DNA of 64,000 nt from Cetorhinus maximus (taxonomy: Eukaryota), in contig NC_135883.1 of assembly GCF_964194155.1 (NCBI RefSeq), positions 52,328,001 to 52,392,000 of the forward strand, read 5' to 3'. Under the pieces are notes generated by a model. The model saw only the letters and a program-made list of their open reading frames with translations. It was not told where the DNA came from and ran no database searches. A program made the position numbers and the translations under genes. This document shows positions 2,589-61,058 of this stretch, piece after piece. Position 1 is the stretch's first letter. Each line of letters begins with the position of its first letter.

Positions 2589-3730
2589 GTACTATGTACA
2601 ATATTGGTTTCCTTATTTAAGGAAATATGTAAATACATTGGAAGTAGTTCAGAAAAGGTTTACCAGATTAATACCCTGAATGGGTGGGCTGTCTTATGAA
2701 GAAAGGCTGGACAGGCAAAGCTTGTATCCATTGGAGTTTAGAAGAGTAAGAGGCGACTTGATTGAAGCGTATAAGTTCCTGAGGGGTGTTGACAGGGTGG
2801 ATGTGGAGAGGATGTTCCTTCTTAGTGAGTCTAGAACTAGGGGTCACTGTTTAAAAATAAGGGATCACCCATTTAAGGCAGATGAGGGAAAAAGCTTTTC
2901 TCTTAGGGTTGTGAGACTTTGGAATGCTATTCCACAAAAGGTGGTTGAGACAGAGTCTTGGGGCAGGACTTACCCTCCATTGCGGGAGATGTGCGGGAGC
3001 GGGCGTGGGCAGGCAGGTTCCTGATTGGCACCCCCGGTTGGGGGCACGCCACCATTTTTCATGGGCAGGCCAATTAAGGCTGAGTGCTCCCTGTGCGGGT
3101 GGGGGGGATTCCCTAAGCCGAGTGTGCGCTCTTTCGCACATGCGCATGAAAGAGCGCACTCATCTCCCCGAGGCTAAGTGCTGCCTCAGGCAGATCGTTG
3201 GGAGTTTAAAACATTTTTTCAAGGACACGAAAAATTTTCCTGACATGTTCCCTCGTGTGACATGTCAATTTCTTTTATTTAAACATTTCATACAAATTTT
3301 AAAACCCTCATGAAACCTCATCCTGCCTGTGGATGAGGTTTCATATTTTTTCTGAAGGCCGCCAGGGCTCCCGACCTGCCCTCCAACCTTAAGGTTGGAT
3401 GGGCAGGTCCATTAATTGTTTTAATTACTTTCTTAAAGGCCTTAAGTGGCTGTTGACAGTTCAGCGGGTGCGCAGCCAAGTTGGCTGCGCGCCCGCCGAA
3501 CTGAAAACCTAAATGATGCAGGCTGACGTCGGGACACACACCCCCGCTCGCCGACCAGAAGATGCAGCCCTTTGAATATCTTTAAGGCAGAGGTAGGTAG
3601 ATTCTTGATAAGCAAGGGGGTGAAAGGTTATTGGCAATAGGAAAGAATGTGATATTGAGGTTAAAATTTGATCTTATTGAATGGCAGAGGAGATTTGAGG
3701 GGCTGAGTGGCCTACTCCTCCTAATTCGTA
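2589..3730 (+). mobile_element. CR1 LINE 3' fragment interrupted by a MITE
   Basis: LSYEERLDR..LYPLEFRRVRGDLIEAYK is the CR1 ORF2 C-terminus; CR1 tail GGGGCTGAGTGGCCTACTCCT at about 3700-3720. Confidence 0.9.
2961..3570. mobile_element. PIF/Harbinger-type MITE
   Basis: Termini GGGCAGGACTT...AAGATGCAGCCC, imperfect 3-bp TSD (TTG/TTT); splits a CR1; body shared with copies at 3827, 6060, 41359 and 62292. Confidence 0.8.
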
Positions 3731-7117: not shown

Positions 7118-7791
7118 ATAGCCTTTTCTCCTGTATACACGTTTCTCTCTTTTAATGCAAATTCCATTTTTCCCATATGTCTTTGGAACTTTACCTTTCT
7201 CATAATATAAATCTTTTCATGGTGCTAATATTATCAGTAACCTTTCGGGGGGGGAAAAAAACATACTGCTTGACCTAGCTTCTCTGGCTAGGTGTAACAT
7301 CCTACCATCTCTTTGAAATTCAAACTAGCCTGATTTATCTACAAGTGCAAATTCTCCTTAACTCACATTCTAAAACTTCAGCCATGTTTATGTATTTAGC
7401 TTATCAAACTTAGCTTTTTTTGATGAGTCAAAGGCCCCAGGCCAACTAAATAATTATACTTTCATGACACCATGCCAATATGTTACCCCCTATACCATGA
7501 GCTTTTATTTTCAACAATAACCTTTGGTGTGGCACTTTATTAAATGCCTTCTGGAAATCTAAGTACAGTACGTCCTCTGATTTCCCTTTATCCACAGTAC
7601 GTTACTTTCTCAAAGAAAAGTTGGTTAAATATGATTTCCCTTTCACAAATCCATGTTGACTCTGCCTAATTACCTTGAACTTATCCAAGTGCCCTGCTAT
7701 AGCTTCTTTAATAATTGCTTCTAACATTTTCCCTATAACAGATGTAAAGCTAACTGGCCTGTAGTTTCCTACTTTCTGTCTCCTTCATTAT

Positions 7792-8125
7792 GGGGAGGCG
7801 GTGGCATAATGGTATTGTCACTGGACTAATATTCCAGAGGCTCAGGGTAATACTTTGGGGACCATCGGCAGATGGCGAAATTTGAATTCAATAAAAATCC
7901 AGAATTATAAGTCTGATGATGACCATGAAACCATTGCTGATTGTTGTAAAAACCCATCTGGTTCACTAATGTCCTTTAGGGAAGGAAATCTGCTGTCCTT
8001 GCCTGGTCTGGCCTACATGTGACTCCAGACCCACAGCAATGTGGTTGACTCTTAACTGCCCTCTGAACAAGGACAACTAGGGATGGGCACTCATGCCTAG
8101 CCAGCCATGAACGAATAATTTTTTT
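7792..8125 (+). mobile_element. tRNA-headed SINE sharing both head and tail with the LINE at 58025-61058
   Basis: A-box-like TGGCATAATGG; body matches the reverse complement of 60820-61058; tail CAACTAGGGATGGGCA..CCAGCCATGAACGAATAA matches the LINE 3' end. Confidence 0.85.
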
Positions 8126-9906
8126 TAAAAATCAAGAAGTGGAGTTAAATTTAATATCTTCTAATCTAATCTCTGCATCTAGGGAGTCTCAGAAAATTAA
8201 TCAACTATCTCACTAACCATTTCTTTTAAGACCCTAGGATGAAGTCCATTAGGACCCGGGCACATGCTCCAACAATTTACTCAGTACCATTTCTCTTGTG
8301 ATTGTAATTTTCCTGAGTCCCTCCCTAGCTTTTGTTTCCTGGTTCTAGGATGTTACTTGTATCTTCTAAAGCAAAGAGTGATGATGAAAGATTTTAAAAT
8401 ATTTATGGAAACTCTTACTATCTGTTCTTATATTTCTGATTAGCTTTCTCTTGTACTCTAATTTTTTCCTCCTCATTAATCTTTTAGTCATCCTTTGCTG
8501 TTATATTCTGTCCAATCTTCTGGCCTTCCACCTATCTTTGCACAATTATATACTTTTTCTTTAAGTTTGATGCTATCTTTAACCCACAGATGGAGTGTCC
8601 TTCCTTTCGACTTTTTCTTACTCGTTGGTATGTATATATTCTGTACATTCTGAAATGTCCCCGTAAATGTTTGCCATTGCATCTCTTTTGATCTATCCCT
8701 TAATCTAACTTGCCAGTTCACTTTAGCCAGCTCTGCTTTCATGCTCTCATAATTGCCCATTAAGTTTGAATACATAGTCTCGGACCCACTCCTCTCCCTC
8801 AAACTGAATGTAAAATTCAATCATATTATGGTTGCTGCTACCCCAGGGTGCCTTCACTATGAGATCATTAATTAATCCCATCCTGTTGCACAATACCAGG
8901 TCTAGTATAGCCTGCTCTCTGGTTGGCTCCAGAACGTGCTGTTCTAAGAAACTATCCCGAAAACATTCTATGAACTTCTTATCCAGGCTACCTTTGCCCA
9001 TTTGACTTATCCAGTCTATATGCAGATTAAAATCTCCCATGGTTATCGCTGCAGCTTCCTGACAAGCTCCCATTATTTCTTCCTTTATGCTCCATCCTAC
9101 CATGTGGTTACTATTAGGGGGCCTGTACACGACTCCCATAAGTGACTTCTTGCCTTTACAATTTCTCATCTCTACCCAAACCGTTTCCACATCCTGGTCT
9201 CCTGGACTTATGTCATTCCCCCTCTATTATGCTAACACCATCATTAACTAACAGAGCCACCTTTTCCTTGCTTCCTGTCCTTCCTAAATGTCCTATACCC
9301 TTTAATATTCAGGTCCCAATCCATGTCCTCCTGCAGCCATGTCTCTGTAATGGCTATCAAATTGTACCTATTTATTTCTGTGCGCTCTCTAAAACAGAAT
9401 GCTTCGTGCATTCAGATTCAGAGCGTTTAATTTCATCCTTTTATTCTTTTTATAACCTCCACCTGTTCTGTTGATTTACTATTAGATTTGTACTCTCTAT
9501 CCCTTCCTGTCACGGTCTGCTTTTCATTTTCCGTAACAATACCTTTCTCTTTTGCCTTGTCCCTACCTTTTGATTTAGCATATCTTCCCAAATTTGTACC
9601 TTTGCCCCCAGTATTAGTTTTAAACCATCTTTACTTCCCTTGTCATGCGGCTCACAAGAGCACCAATCCCAGCATGGTTCAGGTGTAGACCATCCCAACA
9701 GTACAGATCCCACTTTCCCCAGTATTGGTTCCATTGCCCCATGAACCAGAACCCACTTCTCCCACACCAGGCTTTGAACCACGCGTTCATCCCCCTAGTC
9801 TGATTTGCCCTATGCCAATTTGCATGTGGCTCGGATAATGATCCAGAGATTATGACCTTTGAGATTCTGCTTCTCCATTTGGTGTCAAGCTCCTCATACT
9901 GACTAT

Positions 9907-14859: not shown

Positions 14860-15590
14860 TAATATATTTTTTAGTATTTGGGCATTGCTGGAAAGACAGC
14901 ATTTATTATCCTTGAGAAGATGGTTTGTCATTTTCTTGAACTGTTGCAGCCTGTGAGATGAAGGTGCAACCACATTACTGTTAGGGATGAAGTTGCAGAT
15001 TTTTGGCCCAGCGATGATGAAGGTAATGTATTCCATATATTCCCAAGCCAGGATGCTATGCCAATCAAGTGGGCTGTTTTGTCCTGGATGATGTCAGGCT
15101 TCTTGAGTGTTGTTGGAACTGCACTCATCCAGAGTGAAGAATATTCCATCACACTCCTGACTTGTGCCTTTATAGATGGTATACAGGCTTTGAAGTGTCA
15201 CTGGGTGAGCTATTTGCCACAGAATTCCAACCTCTGACCTGTTCCTGTAGCCACATTAATAATATGGCTGGTCGAGTTAACTTTTTGACCAAAGGATGCC
15301 CTCAGGAAGTTGATAGTGGGGAATTCAACAATGGTAATGCCATTGAATCTTAAGATGAGATGGTGAGACTCTCCATTGGCGATAGTCATTGCCTAGCAAT
15401 TTTTACTTACCATTTATTAGCCCAGGCCTGAATAATGTCTGGGGCTTGCTGTACGGGGGTTCAGACTGCTTCAAGATCTGAGCAGGTGCAATTGAAACCG
15501 AATACTGTGCAATCATCAAGTGAACTTCCATGGTTCTGAAGGAGGGAAGGTCGTTGAAGCAGCTGAAAATGATCCAGTTATCCTGACCCT
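14860..15590 (-). mobile_element. 3' fragment of the tRNA-headed LINE family
   Basis: MMEYSSLWMSAVPTTLKKPDIIQDKTAHLIG; colinear with 58050-58980. Confidence 0.8.
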
Positions 15591-16293: not shown

Positions 16294-16295
16294 TC

Positions 16296-17690
16296 TGTTT
16301 CCTGTCAGCTAATCCTCTTTCCATCTTAATATATAACCCCCAACACCATGAGCTCTGATTTTGTACAGTAACCTTTTATGTGGCACATTATCAAATGCCT
16401 TTTGAAAATCTAAATACACTACATCTGCTGGTTCCCCTTTATCCACTCTGCTTGTCGGGTCCTCAAAGAACTCCAATAAATTTATCAAACATGATTTCCC
16501 TTCACAAATCATGTTGACTCTGCCTGATTGAATCCTGATTTTCTAAATGCCCTGCTACTACTTCGTTAACAATGGATTGCAGCCTTTTCCCAATGACAGA
16601 TGTTAGGTGAACTGACCTATCGTTTCCTGCTTTCTGTCTCTCTCCTTTGTTGAACAGAGGTGTTACATTTGTGATTTTCCAATATGCTGGGACCTTTCCA
16701 GAATCTAGGGGATATTTGAAGATTAGAACCAATATATCCACTATCTCAGCAGCAACTTCTTTTAAGATTTTAGGATGTAGGCCATCAGGCCCAGGGGACT
16801 TGTCAGCCTTTGGCCCATTAGCTTTCCTAGTACTTTTTATTGAGTGATTTTAATTGTTTTAAGTTCCCCTCCCCTTTTTGCCCCCCTGCTTTTCTGCTAT
16901 TCTTGGGATGATTTTTTTGTGTCTTCTACTGTGAAGACAGACACAAAATACTTGTTCAAAGTCTCTGCCATTCCCTTGTTTCCCATTATTAATTCCACAG
17001 TCTCATCTTCTGAGGGACCAACACTCACTTTAGCTACTCTTTTCATTTTTATATGTTTGTAGAAGCTTTTACTGCCTGTTTTTATATTCCTTGCTAGCAT
17101 TCCCTCATACTCCGATTTCTCACTTTTTTGTTACCCTTTGCTGGTTTCCAAAATGTTCCCAACCGTCTAGCCTCCACTAATCTTTGCAGCACTGTATGTC
17201 TTTTCTTCTCAATTTGAAACCATCCTTAACTTCTTAAACTAGCCACAGATGATATCTCCTTCTCGTCATCTTTCTTTCTCAATAGAATATATCTTTGAGA
17301 GTTATGAAATATATCCTCAAATGCCTGCCACTGTTCTGTGCCATCTTACCTTTTAACCAATTTTCCCATTATACTTTAACAAACTGTCTTCATACCTTAT
17401 AATTGCCTTGTTAAAGTTTTAGTCTCTAGTTTCAGACCCACATTTCACACCTTCAAACTGAATGTGAAATTCTATCATGTTATGATCACTTTTACCCCAT
17501 GAGGATCCTTTACTTTGAAGTCATCAGTTAATCCTGTTTCATTACAGATTACCAGGTCCATTGGTTGGTTCCAGAACATATTGTTCTAAGAAACTGCCCT
17601 CCATATACTCTATGAGCATTACCTCCAGACCATCTTTGCCAATTTGATTCATTCAATCCATATGCAGTTAAAATCTTCCATGATTATTGC
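16296..17690 (-). mobile_element. CR1 ORF2 fragment
   Basis: GKSCLINLLEFFE..VVYLDFQKAFDNVPH; WKITNVTPLF. Confidence 0.9.
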
Positions 17691-17696
17691 TAACTC

Positions 17697-19255
17697 TAGG
17701 ACACAAGTCCTCAGCATACAACTGGGATGTTGTTGGAACCTATTGCCTTTGCTGTATCCGCTGCCAATGGCCGTTTCTTGACATCGTGTGTAGTGATTCA
17801 ATTTGTCTGAAGACTGGCTTTTGTGATGTCTGGGACCTCAGGCGGACTCAGTCATGGAGCACTCTCTTGGCACTTCCAGCTGAAGTTGGCTGCAAATGCT
17901 TCAGCCTTGACTTGTGCGCTCAGGCACTGGGCTCCCCATCATTGAGCATGGGGGTGCTCGTTGAGCTGCCTCCTCCAATTAGTTGTTTAATTGCCCACTA
18001 CTTGGATTTGGTTGGGCTCCAGTGTTTCACCAGGTTTCTGCTTTTTAAGTATGTTTGTTGCTTCCCTTGGTAAGCTGTTCAACACTATTCATTGAACCGG
18101 CATTGGTCCGTGTCTTGATGGTAAAGTGAGGGATATGCTGAGCAATGAGCTTGCAGATTGTAGTGGAATATAATTCTGCTGATGCTAATTACCCACAACA
18201 CTTCATGGAGTCCCAGCTTTGTGCTGAGAGCTTTTGAAACTATCCCAGTTAGCACAGTGGCTGTGCGACACGTGATGGAAGGTGTCCTCAGTGTGGAAGT
18301 GGGAACTCTGCCTCTGCAAGGTGGTCACTCTTGCCAATACTGTCATGGACAGATGCATCTGTGACAGATAGATTAGTGAAAATGAAAACAAGTAAGTTTT
18401 TTTCCTCTCGTTAGTTCTTTCACTGTCTTCCCTGCGCAGGCCCAGTATGACAGCTGCGAGCTTCAGGACGAGGCCAGTTCAGCCAGTAGTAGTGCTACTG
18501 TGTCATTCTTGGTGATCGGCTTCGAAGTCCCCTACATTTTGTACCCTTGATGCCCCCAGTGCTTCTTTCAGAGGGTACTCAAAATGGAGGAGCACTGATT
18601 TATCAGCTAAGGGAGGGCAGTAAATAGGAATGAGCAGGAGGTTTCCTTGCCCAGGCTTAGCCTGATACCACAAGACTTGATAGGGCCTGTAGTCAGGGAC
18701 ACTCCCTTCTGACTGTGTAACTCTTGCTGTCACTGGCTTGGCTGATAACTATGATTCTGTGGGTAGGACTATGTCAGGCTGTCGCTTGCTCTGTGAGAAA
18801 GCTCTTGGTACAACTTTTGGTATAAATCTCCAGATGTTAGTGAGGAAGACTGAGTGTGCCTTCACTGTGTCTGAGTCCAGTGCCTAGGTTAATGCTAGGT
18901 GGTCCATCTGGTTTTATTCCTGTTATACTTTGTCGAAACAGTTTCGTGCAACTGAGTGGTTTGCCAAGCCGTTTCAGAGGGCAGTTAAGAGTCGGTCAGT
19001 CTGGTGTCACGTATAGGCTTGAGTAAGAGCAGAAGATTTCTTTCCCTAAAGAGCATTAAAGAACCAGGTGCATTTTTACAACAATCAGTAGTTACATGGT
19101 TGTCATTACTGCTTTTTATTCTGGATTTTAAAAAAATTAATTGAATTTAAATTTCCGAGTTGCTGTTTCAGGCTTTGAACTCATGACTCCAGATCATTAG
19201 TCCAAGTCTCTGGATTACTAGTCCACCGATATTATCAGCATGCTATCATACCCCG
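17697..19255 (-). mobile_element. 5' half (tRNA-like head + APE domain) of the tRNA-headed LINE family, older copy
   Basis: Colinear with 59500-61058, including the head (GGACTAGTAATCCAGAGAC, B-box-like GAGTTCAAAGCC on minus); APE-like GNLLLIPIYCPP..GDF. Confidence 0.8.
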
Positions 19256-29169: not shown

Positions 29170-30810
29170 AGAATGACTAAAAAAACAAAATGACGGAGAA
29201 ATTAAACTATGAGAGAAAGTTAGCTAGAAATTAAAACAGATAGTAACAGTTTCTGCAAGTATTTAAAAAGGAAAAGAGTAACTAGAGTGAGCGTTGGTCC
29301 CTTAAAGGGTGAGGCTGCAGAACTAATAATGGGAATTAAGGAAATAGCAGAAGCGTTGAACAGATATTTTGCAACTGTCTTCATTGTAGAAGACAAAAAC
29401 ATCCCAAGAGTACTTGACAATCGAGAGTTAAAACGGAGGGAGGAACTTGAAACAATCACAATCACGTTGGAAAAGGTTTGGGAAAATTATTGGAAGTAAA
29501 GGTTGACAAGTCCCGTGGACCTGATGGCTATCATCCTAGAGTCTTAAAAGAAGTGGCTGCAGAAATAGTAGATGCATTCATGTGATCTTCCAAAATTCCC
29601 TAGATGCTGGAAAAGTCCCAGCAGATTGGAAAATCACTAATGTAACACTTCTATTCAAGAAAGACGGGCGATAGAAAGGAGGCCAGTTAATCCAAATCTG
29701 TCATAGGGAAAATACTAAAATCCATTATTAAGGAAGTAATAGTAGGGCATTTAGAAAATCATAATATAACCATGCAAAGCCAACATGGTTTTGTGAGAGG
29801 GAAATCATGTTTGACAAATTTATTAAAATTCTTTGAGGAAGTAACAAGCAACGTGAATAAAGGTCAATCTGTAGATGTGGTATACTTGGGATTTACAAAA
29901 GGCATTTGATAAACTGCCGCATCAAAAGTTACTTCGCAAAATAAGAGCCCGTGGTGTCAGGGTAATATATTATCATGGATTGAGGATTGGTTAGCTAACA
30001 GGAAACAGTAGGGATAAATCAGTATTTTTCGGGTAGGTAAGCTTTAGTACTGAGGTGCCATAGGAATCAGTACTGGGCTCTCAACTATTTACAATCTACA
30101 GTCATCCAATGACTTGGATGAAAAAGAATTATACCAATTTGCTGATGCAGCAAGTGATTAGGAAGGCAAATGGAATTTTGTCATTTATTGCAAGGGGAAT
30201 TAAATATAAAAGTATGCAAATTATGCTACTGTTGTACAGGGTGTTGGTGAGACCACATCTAGAGTATTGTGTACAGTTTTGGTCTCCTTACTTAAGAGAG
30301 GATATAATTGCATTAGCAGCAATTCAACGAAAGTTCACTCAACTAATTCCTGGGATGAAAGGGTTACCTTATGAGGAAATGTTGAATAGGTTGGGTCAAT
30401 ACCCATTGAAGTTTAGAAGCATGGGAGGTGATCTGATTGAAACATATAAGATCCTGAGAGAACTTGACAGGATGGATGTTAAGAGGATGTTTCCCCTTGT
30501 GGGCGGAGTCTCGAACCAGGGGTCACAGTTTAAAAATTAGGGGTCTTGCATTAAAGGAGGAGATAAGGAGATTTTTTTTTCTCTGAGGGTCATTTGCCTG
30601 TGGAATTTTCTTCCCCAGAGGGCAATGGAGACTGGGCCATTGAACGTTTTCAAGGCCAAATTCGATTTTTGATCAGCAAGGGAATCAACAGTTATGGCCG
30701 ACACAGGAAAGTGGAGTTGAGGCCACAACCTGGTCAACCATGATCTTACCAAACTGCAAAGTAGGCCTGAGGGGCTGAATGGCCTACTCCTCCTAATTCT
30801 TTTGTTAAAT
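29170..30810 (+). mobile_element. CR1 ORF2/3' fragment, intronic
   Basis: VRPHLEYCVQFWSPYL..GDLIETYKIL; CR1 tail GGGGCTGAATGGCCTACTCCT. Confidence 0.9.
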
Positions 30811-46352: not shown

Positions 46353-48389
46353 CATACTTTAATGTAGTTTAAAGCCACATGGAGAGATGTAAAAAATACG
46401 TTTGATAAAGCTCCAGCATTTTGAAGCTAACTTATGAACCAGAAGGCATAACAGCACTCCTGAATCACAGAAGGCTATTTGCTGGCATATTTAAAGTGCC
46501 ACTGCTGTACTTGATACACAAGTTGTTTTTTAGGAATATAGATTTGTGGTTAATATTGATGTTTCTGTTGAAATTCAACTTTATGCATTTTGATGTGACA
46601 TCTGACAAAAGCCTGCTTTAAGTGTTCAAAATATAAATGTGAAAGGATTAATTCACATGCAGCTCATAAACATCTAAATCATTATGGTTTGGGTGGCAAA
46701 TCCAGTGAGAATATTTTACTCATGGTTTTGAGGCTGCTGCAAACTGCTAAATGAAATGTTTAATTGAAGGACAACAAAATCTATTTCTGACGTCACAGGA
46801 AGCAAATTTTGCATTTTAAAGGAATGTTAGCCTTTCCACATCTTTGCGGTTGACTCAACACTTGGCCAGATCATCCCTACTATATATTTGGATTAATCAA
46901 AAAGCACATTCTTGTCTCAGTAAAGCAAAGCTAAAATAGTGCAGCGTGCAACTGGTATTCATAATTGCTTCTCTCACATGCAACAGGCATTGAAACTCAA
47001 ATTCTACTCATTTGCTCCACATTATGATTGCACAATACAAATATAGATAAGGGAGGAGATTCAACACATCTTAACTCATCCATCAAGGAGGAAAATTTAG
47101 GGCAGGACCTTAAATGACAAAGCGGAGTGGGCTCGGGTGTTAAATTCCCCCCCCCAAAATGCTAGCGAGACAAAAATCCAACGTGACCCAGCTCATTTCC
47201 ACCTTTTACTGGGGCATGTTTGGAGCTGTGCAGGATATTCCTTTGGAGATGTCAGGTCTGTAATTTAAATATGTTGAGAGCCAATTAAGACTTTAACCCA
47301 GAATTCTGGCTTTAATAGCCAGCACATGGGCTTCCCAAACTGTGTGAAACTTGTCAGGATCAACAAGGCGAGAGCAAAGCAGTGTTTAATTGCTTAATGA
47401 AATCAACAGTTTGTAGATCGACACTGCACAGCTGTTTCCCTGCCTATGTGAAAGGTGCTACTAATAGAACTTGTTCTCAGTGTGCTTTCACCACATCACA
47501 GGTGATTTCCAACATTTTGGAAGTCAGTTCACCTCTCTTGAACTTCCCGCCTGTCTACCTTCACTACAGCATGACAGCAATTTATACACTTGGATCTCTG
47601 ATGAGGAACAAATCGAACAGCAGTGGGAGCAACACCCCCAGCTTCAGTTACCTTCTCTAAATCTACATGCACTCCACAGGACGGAGGGGCGTACACAGAG
47701 TTCCAGTTCAAAGAATGTGATACTTTCCCCACAAGAATTTTTTTATTCATTTATGTGAGCATCGCTGGTAAGATCAGCATTTATTGCCAATCCCTAATTG
47801 CAATTGAGAAGATGGTGATGAGCTGGGTTCTTGAACCACTGCAGTTCAAGTGGTGTTGGTACACCCACAGTGCTGATAGGGAGAGAGTTCCAAAATTTTG
47901 ACCTAGCGATAGTGAAAGAATGGCGATATAGTTCAAAGCCTGGATGGTGTGTGGCTTGGAGATCTTGCAGGTGGTGGTGTTCCCATGTACCTGCTGTTCT
48001 TGTTCTTCGATGTGGGAGAGGTTGTGGGTTTGGAGGGTGTTATTGAAGGAGCCTTGGAGAGTTGTTGCAGTGCATCTTGTATATAGTACACACTGCTGCC
48101 ACTGTGCATAATAATGGAAGGAGTGAATGTTTAAGCTGGTGGATGGGTACTGATCAAGCAGGCTGCTTTATACTGTATGGTGTCAAGCTTCTTGAGTGTT
48201 GTTGCAGCTACACTCAATCAGGCAAGCAGAAAGTATTCCATCACACTCCAGATTTGTGCCTTATAGATGGTGGACAGGCTTTAGGGAGTTTGAAGGTCAA
48301 CCACTCTGTCCAGAATTCCCAGCCTCTGACCTGCTCTTATAGCCACAGTATTTATATGGCTTGACCAGTTAGTTTATGGTAAATGGTGA

Positions 48390-50925: not shown

Positions 50926-51830
50926 GGTAAACGGTAAGCCGCTAGAATGGTGATGGCGAGGGAGTCATCACTGGCTGTCTTTGAGTTTCATGGGGAAGTG
51001 GTTGGATTTTGTCTATTTGGAGATGCTCATTGCCTGCCACTTGTATAGTGCGAATGTTACTAGCTACTTAAATCAGCCTGAGACTGAATGTTGTCCAGGC
51101 CTTGCTGCACTTGGGCACGATTGTTTCAGTATCTGAAGAGTTGCAAACGATACCGAACATTGTGCAGTCATCAGTGGAAATTCCCACTTCTGACCTTATG
51201 TTAGGGGGGAGGTCATTGAGGAACTCCTGCAGCATGTCCTGGGACTGAGATGATTGGCCTCCAACGGCAACAGCCGCTTTCCTTTGTGCTAGATATGACT
51301 CTAATCAGTGGAGAGTTTTTCCCCTGATCCATGTTGCTAGGGCTCCTTGATGCCACACTCAGTCAAATGCTGCCTTGATCTTAAGGGCAGTCACTCTCAC
51401 CTCATCTCCTGGGTTCAGCTCTTTTTTCCATGTTTGAACCAAAGCTGTAATGAGGCCAGGACCTGAGTGACCCTGGAAGAACTCAAACTGAGTGAGCAGG
51501 TTATTGCTAAGCAAGTGCGGCTTGATAGGACTATTGATGACCGCTTCCATCACTTTAACATTTGAGAGTAGACTAATGGGGTGGTAATTGGCCAGATTGG
51601 ATTTATCTTGCCTTTTGTGGACAGGACATAGCTGGGCAATTTTCCACAATGTTGATAGATGCCTATATTATAGCTGTGCTGGAACAGCTTGGCTAGAGGC
51701 AGGCTAGTTCTGGAGCACAAGCCTTCAGTAATACAAACAGGATTTTGTTGTGACCCATAGCTTTTGCAGTATGCAGTGCCTTCAGCCATTTAATGATATC
51801 GTGTGGAGTGAATCAAATTGCCTGAAGACT

Positions 51831-52654: not shown

Positions 52655-54090
52655 GGTCTGGATTTTACAGCCCCTGCTGGGTTTGTTTTCATTGTGGGGG
52701 GGTGGGGGGGGTGGTTGGTGGGGCAGGGGGTTTGGTGGGGGGGTGGGCAGGGGGTTTGGGGGAGGGGGGCAGGGGTTTTGGCGGGGGGGGGCAGGGGTTT
52801 GGGGGTGGGGGTGGGGGGCCAGGGGGTGCACATAAAATATGCCCAGTGCCTTCCCACCAAGCCCCCGGCTTGGTCCCCATAATATGGGAGTTGGTAAGGC
52901 ACCCACTAGCCCGCCTGCATGTACACCTGTTGAGGCTCTTAAGTGGCCAATAATGGTCACTTACAGTCCTCAATCAGCCTCCACTGCCATAATACGCTGG
53001 GCAGTGGAAGGCGGGGGAGAGTGGGAAGGCCACTTACAGCGAGGAAGGCTTTCAAAGCTTGCAGAGAGATCTGGACCAACTGGAAAAATGGGCCAGAAAA
53101 TGGCAGATGGAATTTAATCCGGAAAAGTGAGAGGTGTTACATTTTGGAAGGTCAAACCAAGGTAGGACATACACAGTAAATGGTAGGGCACTGAGGAGTG
53201 CGGAGGAACAAAGGGATCTGGGAGTTCAGATATATAATTCCCTGAAAGTGGCGTCACAGGTAGACAAGGTTGTAAAGAAAGCTTTTGGCATACTGGCCTT
53301 CATAAATCAAAGTATTGAGTATAGGAGTTGGGATGTTATGGTGAGGTTGTATAAGACATTGGTGAGGCCAACTTTGGAGTATTGTGTGCAGTTCTGGTCG
53401 CCTAACTTCAGGAAAGATATCAGTAAGATTGAGAGAGTGCAGAGAAGATTTACTAGGATGTTGCTGGGTCTTAAGGAGTTGAGTTATAGGGAAAGATTAA
53501 ACAGGTTAGGACTTTATTCCTTGGAGCGTAGAAGAATGAGGGGAGATGTGATAGAAGTTTACAAAATTGTGAGGGGTATAGACAGAGTAAATGCGAGTAG
53601 GCTCTTTCCACTTAGATTAGGAGAAATAAACACAAGAGGATATGGCTTTAGGGTGAAAGGGGAAAGGTTTAGGGGGAACATTAGGGGGAACTTCTTCACT
53701 CAGAGAGTGGTGAGAGTGTGGAACGAGCTACCATCTGACGTGGTAAATGTAGGCTCACTCTTAAGTTTTAAGAATAAATTAGATAGATACATGGATGGGA
53801 GAGGTCTGGAGGGTTATGGACTAGGTGCAGGTCAATGGAACTAGCGGAATAATATTTCGGCACAGACTAGAAGGGCCGAACGGCCTGTTTTCTGTGCTGT
53901 AGTGTTCTATGGTTCTATGGTTCATATTTGTATCCAAGTTGGTGAAAAGGCAAGAAGGAAGGTTTGGGTACATCATTTGGAAGGGATCCCAGTGGACATT
54001 GGGGGCAACACCCACCCCCCGCCCCACCCCCCGACCCCCGTAAGATTGTACTCCACCTGGCCTCCTGGCTGCCCCTGTAAAATTCAGCCC
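52655..54090. mobile_element. Harbinger-type MITE containing a CR1 insertion and a G-rich tract
   Basis: TIRs GGTCTGGATTTTACAG / CTGTAAAATTCAGCCC, TSD TAG/CAG. Confidence 0.7.
53036..53923 (+). mobile_element. Relatively young 5'-truncated CR1 (HER1-like)
   Basis: Uninterrupted 236-aa ORF2 C-terminus (53134-53844); tail GGGCCGAACGGCCTGTTTTCTGTGCTGTAGTG followed by TTCTATGG repeats. Confidence 0.95.
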
Positions 54091-58024: not shown

Positions 58025-61000
58025 TTTTTATTTTGATTCATTCACGGGATGTGGGCTTCACTGGCTGAGCCAGTATTTATTGCCCATCCCTAATTTCCCT
58101 GAGAAGGTGGTGGTGAGCAGTCTTCTTGAACCGCTTCAATCCATGTGGTGTAGTTACACCCACGGTGCTGTGAGGGAGGGAGTTCCAGGGTTTTGACCCA
58201 TTGACAGTGAAGGAAAGGTGATATTTCCAGTCAGGATGTTGAGTGGCTTGGAGGGGAACTTCCAGGTGGTGGAGTTCCCATCTATCTGCTGCCCTTGTCC
58301 TTTTAGATGGTAGTTGTCGTGGTTTTGGAAAGTGCTGTATGAGGAGCCTTAGTGAGTTTCTGCAGTGCATCTTGTAGATGGTACACACTGCTGCTACTGT
58401 GCTTTGGTGGTGCAGGGAGTGAATATTTATGGATAGGGTGCCAATCAAGCGGGCTGATTTGTTCTGGATGGTGTCAAGCTTCTTGAGTGTTTTTGAGCTG
58501 CAGTCATCCAGGCAAGTGGAGAGTATTCCATCACACTCCTGACTTGTGCCTTGTAGATGGTGGACAGGCTTTGGGGAGTCAGGATGTAAGTTACTTGTCA
58601 CAGGATTCCTAGCCTCCAGCCTGCTGTTGTAGTTAATAGTATTTATATGGCTAGTCCAATTCAGCTTCTGGTCAATGGTAACCCCAGGATGTTGATAGTA
58701 CAGGATTCAGTGATAGCTATGCTATTGAATGTCAAGGGGTGATGATCAGATTCTTTCTTGTTGGAGATGGTCATTGCCTGGCACTTGTGTGGCACGAATG
58801 TTACTTGCCACTTGTCAGCCCAAGCCTGGGTAATATCCAGGACTTGCTGCATTTGGACATGGGACTGCTTCGGTATCGAGGAGTCACGAATGGTGCTGAA
58901 CATTGTGCAATCAGCGAACATCCCCACTTCTGACCTTATGATGGAGGGAAAGTCATTGATGAAGCAGCTAAAGATGGTTGGGCCTAGGACACAACCCTGA
59001 GGAACTCTTGCAGTGATGTCCTGGAACTGTGATGACTGACCTCCAACAACCACAGCCATCTTCCTTTGTGCTAGGTATGACTCCAAGTAGTGAAGAGTTT
59101 TCCCCTGATTCCCATTGGCTCCAGTTTTGCTCGGGCTCCTTCATACCACACTCGGTCAAATGCAGCCATGCTGTCAAGGGCAGTCAATCTCACCTCACCT
59201 TGGGTGTTCAGTCTTTTTTCCATGTTTGAACCAAGGCTGTAATGAGGTCAGGAGCTAAATGGCCCTGGCAGAACCCAAACTGGGCATCAGTGAGCAGGTT
59301 ATTGCTAATCAAGTGCAGCTTGATGGCACTGTTGATGACCCCTCCCATTAATTCACTGATGATCAAGAGTAGACTGATGGAGTGGTAGTTGGCCAGGTTG
59401 GATTTGTCCTGCTTTTTGTGTACAGGACATACCTGGGCAATTTTCCATATTGCTAGGTAGATGCCAGTGTTGTAGCTGTACTGGAATAGCTTGGCTAGGG
59501 ACGCGGCAAGTCTTCAGCACTATTGTCGGAATATTGTCAGGACCCATAGCCTTTGCAATATCCAGTGCCTCCAGACGTTTCTTGATATCAGGTGGAGTAA
59601 ATCGAATTGGCTAAAGACTGGCATCTGTGATGCTGGGGACCTCCAGGAGAGGTTGAGATGGATCATCCACTCGTCATTTGTGCCTGAAGATTGTAGCAAG
59701 TGCTTCAGCCTTATCTTTTGCACTGATGTGCTGGGCTCCCCCATCATTGACAGTCAGGATGTATGCTGATCTTCCTCCTCTAGTGAATTGCTTAATTGGC
59801 CAACACCATTCAAGACTGGATATGACAGGACTGCAGAGCTTAGATGAGGTCTGTTGGTTGTGGAACCGCTTAGCTCCGTCTATCACTTGCTGTTTATGCG
59901 GTTTGGTACTCAAGGAGTCCTGTGTTGTAGCTTCACCAGGTTGACACCTCATTTTAGGTATGCCTGGTGCTGCTCCTGGCATGTCTTCCTGCTCTCTTTA
60001 TTGAACCAGGGTTGATCCCCTGGTTTGGTGGTAACGGTAGAGTGGGGGATATGCCGGGCCATGAGGTTGCAATTGTGATTGAGTACAGTTCTGGTGCTGC
60101 TGATGGCCTGCAGCTCCTCACAGTTGCCCAGTCTTGAGTTGCTAGATCTGTTCTAAATCTATCCCATTTAGCAAGGCTACACAACATGATGGAAGGTATC
60201 CTCAATGTGAAGACAGGACTTTGTCTCCACAAGGACTATGCATTGATCACTCCTACCAATACTGCCATGACACATGCATCTGCGGCAGGCAGGTTGGTGA
60301 GAATGAGGTCAAGTATGTTTATCCCTCTTGTTGGTTCCCTCACCACCTGCCACAGACCCAGCTATGTCCTTTAGGACTCGGCCAGCAGTGGTGCTACCGA
60401 GCCACTCTCGGTGATGGACATTGAATTCCCACACCTAGAGTACCTTCTGCACCCTTGCCACCCTCAGTGCTTCCTCCAAATGGTGTTCAACATGGAGGAG
60501 CACTGAGTCTTCAGATGAGGGGTTGGGGGGAGGGGAGGAGGGCGGTACTTGGTAATCAGCAGCAAGTTTCCTTGCCCATGTTTGGCCTGATGCCATGAGA
60601 CTGGAGTCAATGTTGAGGACTCCTAGGGTAACTTCCTACCGACTGGATACCACCTCTGCTGGGCCTGTCCTGCTGTTGGGACAGGACATACCTGGTGATG
60701 GTGGAGTCTGGGACATTGTCTGTAAGGTATGATAGGTCGGTCCATCTGGTTTCATTGTTTCGTTTCTTTGAGACTTTTTAGCGGCTTGATACAACTGAAT
60801 GGCATGCTAGGCCATTTCAGAGTCAACCACATTCCTGTGGGGTCTGGAGTCACATATAGGCCAGACTAAAGGACATTAGTGAACCAGATGGGTTTTTACG
60901 ACAATTGACAATGGTTTTGTAGTCATCATTAGACTCTTAGCTCCAGATTTGAATTGAATTCAAATTCCACCATCTGTGGTGGTGGGATTTGAACCAGCAT

Positions 61001-61058
61001 TACCCTGGGTCTCTGGATTAGTAGTCTAGTGACAATACCACTCTGCCACCACCTCCCC
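58025..61058 (-). mobile_element. Near full-length single-ORF LINE (APE+RT, CR1/Jockey group, possibly Zenon-like) with tRNA-like Pol III head
   Basis: RT VPQGCVLGPTIFSCFINDF..MFADC (58661-59086), C-terminal HSLHHQSTVAAVCTIYKMHC, APE remnants 60100-60730, A-rich tail at 58025-58045, head at 60820-61058. Confidence 0.9.
60985..61048 (-). promoter_or_regulatory. Type 2 RNA polymerase III internal promoter (A and B boxes)
   Basis: Minus-strand A box TGGCAGAGTGG (61038-61048) and B box GGTTCAAATCC (60985-60995), 42 nt apart, starting about 10 nt inside the element's 5' end. Confidence 0.75.

Follow-up and report, generated by a model that had tools for sequence, protein, structure and literature searches.

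By the textbook division, LINEs are coding elements made by Pol II and SINEs are non-coding elements made by Pol III, a polymerase normally restricted to short non-coding RNAs; the reason is that this enzyme terminates at runs of T and leaves its transcripts uncapped. A 64-kb stretch of the Cetorhinus maximus genome (hereafter the window; the host genome comprises 3.99 Gb) contains an element that is a LINE by its protein and a SINE by its promoter. It raises the question of whether a vertebrate LINE can be transcribed by Pol III and still serve as its own mRNA. An earlier note, based on the letters of the window, had proposed it as a candidate of this kind, with a coding sequence purged of Pol III terminators.

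The element at 58025..61058 (minus strand) is a decayed, near-full-length copy of an abundant ~3.28-kb shark LINE family with a single ORF, and deviates by 9.4% from the column-majority letters of the family alignment. Family members consist, in this order, of a tRNA-like A/B-box head, a leader of ~290 nt, a single APE-RT frame, AATAAA and an A-tail. The window copy starts with GGGGAGG at its 5' end. Its tRNA-derived head (60974..61056, minus strand) received a tRNA-like call from ARAGORN; a less decayed copy is called as tRNA-Thr(AGT), a call obtained at one of 13 loci scanned. Sequence and column counts place the A box TGGCAGAGTGG at 61038..61048 and the B box GGTTCAAATCC at 60985..60995 (both minus strand), 53 nt past the A box here and 64 nt past it in undeleted copies. 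The leader body, common to LINE and SINE (60816..60973, minus strand), is rich in upstream AUGs and is followed by ATG GCC TAG (60807..60815, minus strand), an in-frame AUG at the SINE junction whose frame is closed by a stop in most copies. Downstream of a deletion of about 160 nt in the 5' ORF near 60735 lie the remains of the APE endonuclease domain (60095..60733, minus strand; PF14529 in copy L081) and of the reverse transcriptase domain (58664..59534, minus strand; PF00078). AATAAA (58076..58081, minus strand) precedes the A-rich tail (58025..58035, minus strand) by ~40 nt.

Further family members are found in the window. An older copy at 17702..19251 (minus strand) comprises a head (18938-19251) and 5' ORF (17702-19225) and holds a few sense T4 runs (A4 on the plus strand at 18379, 18385, 18581 and 19130). 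An internal RT fragment (50926..51830, minus strand) is free of sense T4, and two 3' fragments lie at 47753..48387 and, with an internal deletion, at 14910..15571 (both minus strand). A companion SINE at 7793..8128 (plus strand) joins family columns 1-293, that is head and leader, to columns 3218-3284, the last 67 nt of the LINE. Canonical CR1-type LINE fragments are also present (53036-53923, 16295-17121, 29196-30791 and 7458-9363). Most of what the earlier note had read from these letters holds, namely the A and B boxes at the 5' end, the same head on an independent copy, which continues into the 5' ORF, the head-plus-tail SINE derivative near 7792, the absence of sense T4 from 50940-51830 (no plus-strand A4 between 50876 and 51837), and four sense T4 runs in the CR1 fragment at 53036-53923 (sense plus; 53142, 53283, 53766 and 53888).

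A search with a 311-nt piece of the 5' ORF yielded more than 10,000 first-look candidates for the family (10,162). For an alignment we took the window copy together with 43 of 59 fetched stretches, picked by length; these 44 copies give a unit of ~3,284 columns and lie 4.6-12.6% from the column majority. One frame, about 968 codons long, is free of shared stops between columns ~320 and 3228 (other two frames: 46 and 65) and encodes both APE endonuclease and RT, with PF14529 and PF00078 over cut-off; an ORF1 would not fit into the 290-nt leader. Among shared non-CpG variants, 21 are synonymous and 12 non-synonymous, compared with 466:1398 among singletons (P=4e-6), and the source copies were therefore under selection for protein: purifying selection on the family frame is shown. 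Given that copies are 4.6-12.6% diverged and that the 134 RT matches scored include no intact one, the family looks extinct or inactive in this genome as far as sampled; the 99 fetched stretches likewise held no intact copy. Copies are dispersed and 3'-anchored with an A-tail, and most of 22 copies examined display no clear target-site duplication, with one 21-nt candidate. In a 53-copy alignment, 33 shared non-CpG ORF alleles assort almost freely, forming a mosaic without clean subfamilies in which no head subfamily could be linked to an ORF subfamily. The pattern suggests that source elements often recombined or switched templates.

Protein matches at 77-80% identity named Heterodontus and Rhincodon, which indicates a shark, and no relative of the family was found in viral contigs. 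Contigs from RNA-type runs cover the whole element and indicate neither start, strand nor level. Two metatranscriptome runs, one labelled coral metagenome, also contain the family, at a profile matching that of shark-type runs; this is explained most simply by contamination, and these runs are not evidence of habitat.

To judge the association of head and LINE, we considered 40 copies chosen by RT similarity alone. Of these, 22 are truncated within the ORF, four begin at about the ORF start, four within the leader and ten are full length. All ten full-length copies bear the tRNA head and start at the identical base about 11 nt before the A box, and no alternative shared 5' end exists among the 40, showing that the head belongs to the LINE family. 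Head majority letters are TGGCGTAGTGG and GGTTCAAATCC/GGTTCGAATCC, usually 64 nt apart. One head queried against Rfam had no real match. Many copies, SINEs above all, have lost the B box through recurrent deletions between short direct repeats in head columns 60-110; it is retained in 10 of 27 SINE heads and 37 of 50 LINE heads, the SINE set being biased by a query without a B box. An older variant of the head, which differs in the segment past the B box, is carried by LINE and SINE copies alike (L226, L262, L004, L025, L018 and 18938-19251 of the window).

The companion SINE, which carries the family head, is abundant as well, with 5,820 first-look candidates. Of 25 loci fetched, 23 were inspected, and 21 of the 23 show the junction seen in the window, columns 1-293 plus 3218-3284; one was a LINE and one was incomplete. 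At 360 nt, this SINE lacks the ORF from its AUG to 10 nt before its stop. LINE and SINE heads differ at six diagnostic sites (Fisher P 1e-3 to 5e-6), with some mixing of head alleles, which means that LINE heads are not mere copies of SINE RNA acquired with every insertion.

Is the coding sequence compatible with Pol III? The window copy contains no sense T4 and 16 sense A4, two of them in the tail; the earlier note was thus right about the missing plus-strand AAAA and too low with about a dozen plus-strand TTTT. For this single copy, the absence of T4 is only suggestive (P=0.004 versus mononucleotide and P=0.07 versus dinucleotide shuffles), and four T in 5 nt occur 3 times versus 14.1 expected (P=0.002). 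Across the family, depletion of T-clusters is strong. Column-majority letters of the 44 copies include T4 0, A4 14, C4 11 and G4 9 times, and TTT 6 times compared with 32 AAA, 40 CCC and 31 GGG. We permuted the ORF synonymously in 2000 shuffles that retain its low T content. T4 alone (0 vs 2.1 expected) is not significant (P~0.08), and to this extent the purge as first claimed is not supported; the broader depletion is, with 4 runs of T3+ versus 12.3 expected (none of the 2000 shuffles as low) and a single site of four T in 5 nt, a class that covers canonical and non-canonical Pol III stop signals, versus 8.8 (P=0.001). TT (77 vs 95) and TA (100 vs 116) are both low, and A-, C- and pyrimidine-run controls are normal. 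Dinucleotide shuffles of the family confirm the deficit of four T in 5 nt (2 vs 8.9, P=0.009).

The signal is located in codon junctions, low Phe content and weaker T-clusters. T-run-forming codon pairs, which the earlier note had proposed to test, are avoided, with TTN after T at 0 of 28 and NTT before T at 0 of 42 junctions, and the preference of TTC over TTT is mild only (14:4). Phe amounts to 1.9% in the family compared with 3.8 +/- 1.0% in 57 long protein matches, one of which is lower; the related proteins P0036 and P0009 are low in Phe, too (1.5% and 2.3%). In 26 natural open stretches, which are not independent, T4 occurs 7 times versus 37.4 expected. Natural copies average 0.58 T4/kb (44 copies, eight without any) and RT-selected copies 0.30 T4/kb (35 of 40 copies), compared with about 4.3 A4/kb. 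The sole recurrent T4 site, in 11 of 44 copies, arose by CpG decay after insertion (TTTCG to TTTTG). Human Pol III also terminates at T3VT, TVT3 and T2VT2, T2GT2 being very poor (PMC3141230); the two remaining sites of four T in 5 nt in the element are both TTGTT.

The depletion is not shared by other LINEs compared. In the same genome, one Tx1 and two CR1 families served as controls: a young Tx1-like ORF has 16 T4 in 1252 codons, the CR1 ORFs have 10 in 849 and 9 in 788 codons, and T3+ is near expectation in all of them. A young Tx1/L1-like element with an intact 1303-codon frame forms tandem arrays at ~7.3-kb spacing on many contigs (L090-L119; for example G000:C2:163816707-163864629), as an element that targets a specific, repeated locus would be expected to do. 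Among relatives, which come from other organisms with other base composition, 71 of 80 metagenome loci hold an ORF of at least 300 codons, and all 71 contain T4. The lowest observed/expected ratios in 65 related ORFs of at least 500 codons are 0.74 for T3+ and 0.69 for four T in 5 nt, versus 0.32 and 0.11 in the family. None of the 71 ORFs is accompanied by an A and B box pair, and a profile search of the metagenome loci found no match to the family head. Relaxed ARAGORN calls at 6 of the 80 loci vanished or were off-position, with none of five persisting at default settings. An RT tree of 48 rows puts the family apart from shark CR1, to whose RT it is 31% identical, on a separate branch beside sponge-type and metagenome elements with open support; its nearest proteins are Sycon ciliatum elements and metagenome ORFs (37-47% in RT). 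Taken together, these comparisons support a family-specific purge restricted to T and to the sense strand, beyond codon and dinucleotide controls. Of the findings that would have spoken against the earlier note, neither sense T4 in the majority letters nor full-length copies lacking the head turned up.

An uncapped mRNA would need an unusual start of translation. Leaders contain a median of 8 AUGs (40 copies), and scanning from the 5' end is therefore unlikely, whatever the polymerase. The in-frame AUG exactly at the SINE junction meets a stop at codon 3 or 9 in most of 68 copies and is open in about 12 of them, the next in-frame Met that copies have in common comes at codon 285, beyond most of the endonuclease, and an out-of-frame AUG opens an overlapping uORF of 35 codons. 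From the leader AUGs, the mostly closed in-frame AUG and the distant next Met, we infer internal initiation on the leader, which may be non-AUG. The AUG lies in a hairpin with a 7-nt loop, CUAGCAA, which we take to resemble an anticodon loop in shape, and 17 nt downstream lies an in-frame GCU(A) with which four loop bases could pair. This hairpin shows no covariation and a fold z of -0.65, and the other IGR-IRES domains (PKII/PKIII) were not identified. PKI of dicistrovirus IGR IRESs requires at least four pairs (PMC4132737), and IGR-type IRESs in non-LTR elements have been raised as a possibility (PMC3894237); we give low weight to the analogy between PKI and the putative CUAGCAA:GCU(A) pairing. 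A consensus fold of 24 heads (9 pairs) yielded no useful covariation support in the leader. The first ~165-171 nt of one copy (L073:405-575) are predicted to form a stable long rod instead of a cloverleaf (z -4.3), in which the 5' end pairs to sequence near +160; such a rod could shield an uncapped 5' end.

At the 3' end, AATAAA is present in 53 of 80 LINE and SINE tails and at least four T precede the A-run in 18 of 80. These T-runs were considered as terminators and are not separable from the genome background, in which T-runs before A-runs are also common; they may reflect only the general TnAn mutation bias of the genome.

We consider it likely, and the most parsimonious interpretation, that Pol III transcribes the whole element, whether or not the same RNA is translated. 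The favored reading, which we hold with somewhat more than even confidence, is an autonomous LINE transcribed by Pol III whose RNA is at the same time its mRNA, probably translated cap-independently. An ancestral CR1-group LINE would have exchanged its own 5' end for a SINE-type head, and Pol III terminators, canonical and non-canonical alike, would then have been purged from 3.2 kb by selection on source copies, acting through the choice of codon junctions and low Phe. Pol III would transcribe the element end to end and stop at a T-run in or past the tail, AATAAA would permit polyadenylation as in T+ SINEs, and the leader, with its upstream AUGs and its mostly stop-closed terminal AUG, would deliver ribosomes internally onto uncapped RNA. 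The companion SINE would be the same RNA minus the ORF. The more specific proposal, that the leader of a 3.3-kb Pol III mRNA attracts ribosomes cap-independently, possibly to a non-AUG codon by means of a tRNA-mimic hairpin, is tentative and falls a little short of an even chance.

In the main alternative, though in our view unlikely, Pol III makes only template RNA and the protein derives from capped Pol II read-through transcripts, the frame being kept intact by frequent recombination among source copies. Such split transcription explains the T-cluster purge equally well, as it does the stop after the AUG in most inserted copies and the mosaic ORF variants without clean subfamilies, and in the L1 system Pol III RNAs need no ORF1 (PMC2666806). 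Non-coding templates should lose their frame, yet ~968 codons are free of shared stops and shared variants are mostly synonymous; a capped RNA would, moreover, still confront the same median of 8 upstream AUGs.

Could the polymerase be Pol II after all? An ordinary Pol II LINE with an acquired SINE for its 5' UTR, its T-poverty being due to avoidance of U-rich sensing or nucleases or to compositional drift, is a quite unlikely explanation. A U-directed nuclease or another form of U-avoidance could lower TT and TA, which are indeed both low, and the absence of T4 alone is marginal; however, the depletion exceeds dinucleotide shuffles, pyrimidine tracts are not depleted and CR1 and Tx1 of the same genome are not affected. 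A tRNA-like sequence has already been noted in the LINE RTE-1_DAn (PMC5786205), but in the shark family the boxes keep the tRNA consensus and all full-length copies share their start base. The idea that every insertion gains its head anew from SINE RNA by a template switch, in the manner of U6/L1 chimeras, is highly improbable and already largely refuted, since the abundance of a SINE with the same head and some mixing of head alleles are outweighed by a single fixed junction in all copies, the six LINE/SINE head differences and the lack of any other shared 5' end among 40 copies, and the ORF purge would remain unexplained.

How does the favored Pol III-transcribed LINE relate to known systems? 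Like a Pol III unit, the family has no internal terminator in its column-majority letters. It shares A and B boxes with tRNA-derived SINEs (SINE2), but at 3.28 kb with a selected ORF it is neither short nor non-coding, as only the 360-nt derivative is. It falls outside the canonical vertebrate CR1 clade (HER1-like), with a separate RT and no ORF1. With single-ORF APE LINEs of the broadly defined CR1 group it has in common an APE-RT frame of ~970 codons with a short basic N-terminus, the absence of ORF1 and a short 3' UTR; these relatives differ in lacking a tRNA head and in their ordinary T-run content, and the shark family stands apart from canonical shark CR1.

Bipartite SINE2 likewise combine a tRNA head with A and B boxes, a body and a LINE 3' tail, and the companion SINE is an exact 5'+3' derivative as in bipartite LINE-derived SINEs (PMC5786205), whose sources, as listed there, are only RTE, Ingi, Vingi and R2 (Kojima 2018, PMC5786205). 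SINEs are described in the same source as unable to encode protein; in bipartite SINEs the tRNA head joins a non-coding derivative, whereas in the shark family the coding endonuclease-RT element itself bears the head. RTE-1_DAn and related elements are, as here, LINEs with tRNA-like sequence, but belong to the RTE clade, and the passage of PMC5786205 devoted to them gives no promoter role, position or terminator purge. The T+ SINEs B2, Dip and Ves carry AATAAA, a variable T-run and a short A-tail (PMC8466645), an arrangement whose T-run may be due, in the family, only to the TnAn bias of the genome. The 18 of 80 family tails with at least four T compare with 23-48% reported there for T+ SINE tails of A5-10; unlike the family, these SINEs are short, non-coding and mammalian. 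HE1/HER1 (V-SINE) and SacSINE1/L2-2_CM (Deu-SINE) are shark tRNA-headed SINEs with a LINE tail, whose partner LINEs are not described as head-bearing in the parts of these sources that treat them (PMC3747384, PMC5499810). TRIMp3 Cassandra, Helenus and Ajax are retrotransposons whose Pol III promoter derives from a small RNA gene, but, unlike the shark family, are non-autonomous LTR elements without coding capacity (PMC10886601).

Short-motif tests of the leader body against the SINE domains V, Deu, CORE and Meta identified none of them. HE1 was represented by two V core motifs (from PMC5804259), which occurred in none of 79 copies; Deu motifs, taken from PMC7245038 and not from SacSINE1 itself, occurred in 0/79 and 2/79, which is chance level. 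The family is therefore not filed under HE1/HER1 or SacSINE1 (PMC5499810, PMC3747384, PMC6887750). A tRNA-headed, terminator-free coding LINE is not described in the literature searched, including the abstract of PMC10572872; Repbase and Dfam were outside this search, and a consensus deposited there is quite possible.

If the favored reading is true, vertebrates would possess a natural Pol III mRNA, and LINEs and SINEs would no longer be separated by the coding/non-coding line. It would then be shown that such a long mRNA made by Pol III is workable in nature, and in a very successful vertebrate LINE. The purged sequence would provide a natural list of those T-clusters that matter in vivo, and the leader would be a pointer to a cap-independent translation element. 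Deletion of the ORF, finally, would constitute a direct route to the birth of a SINE.
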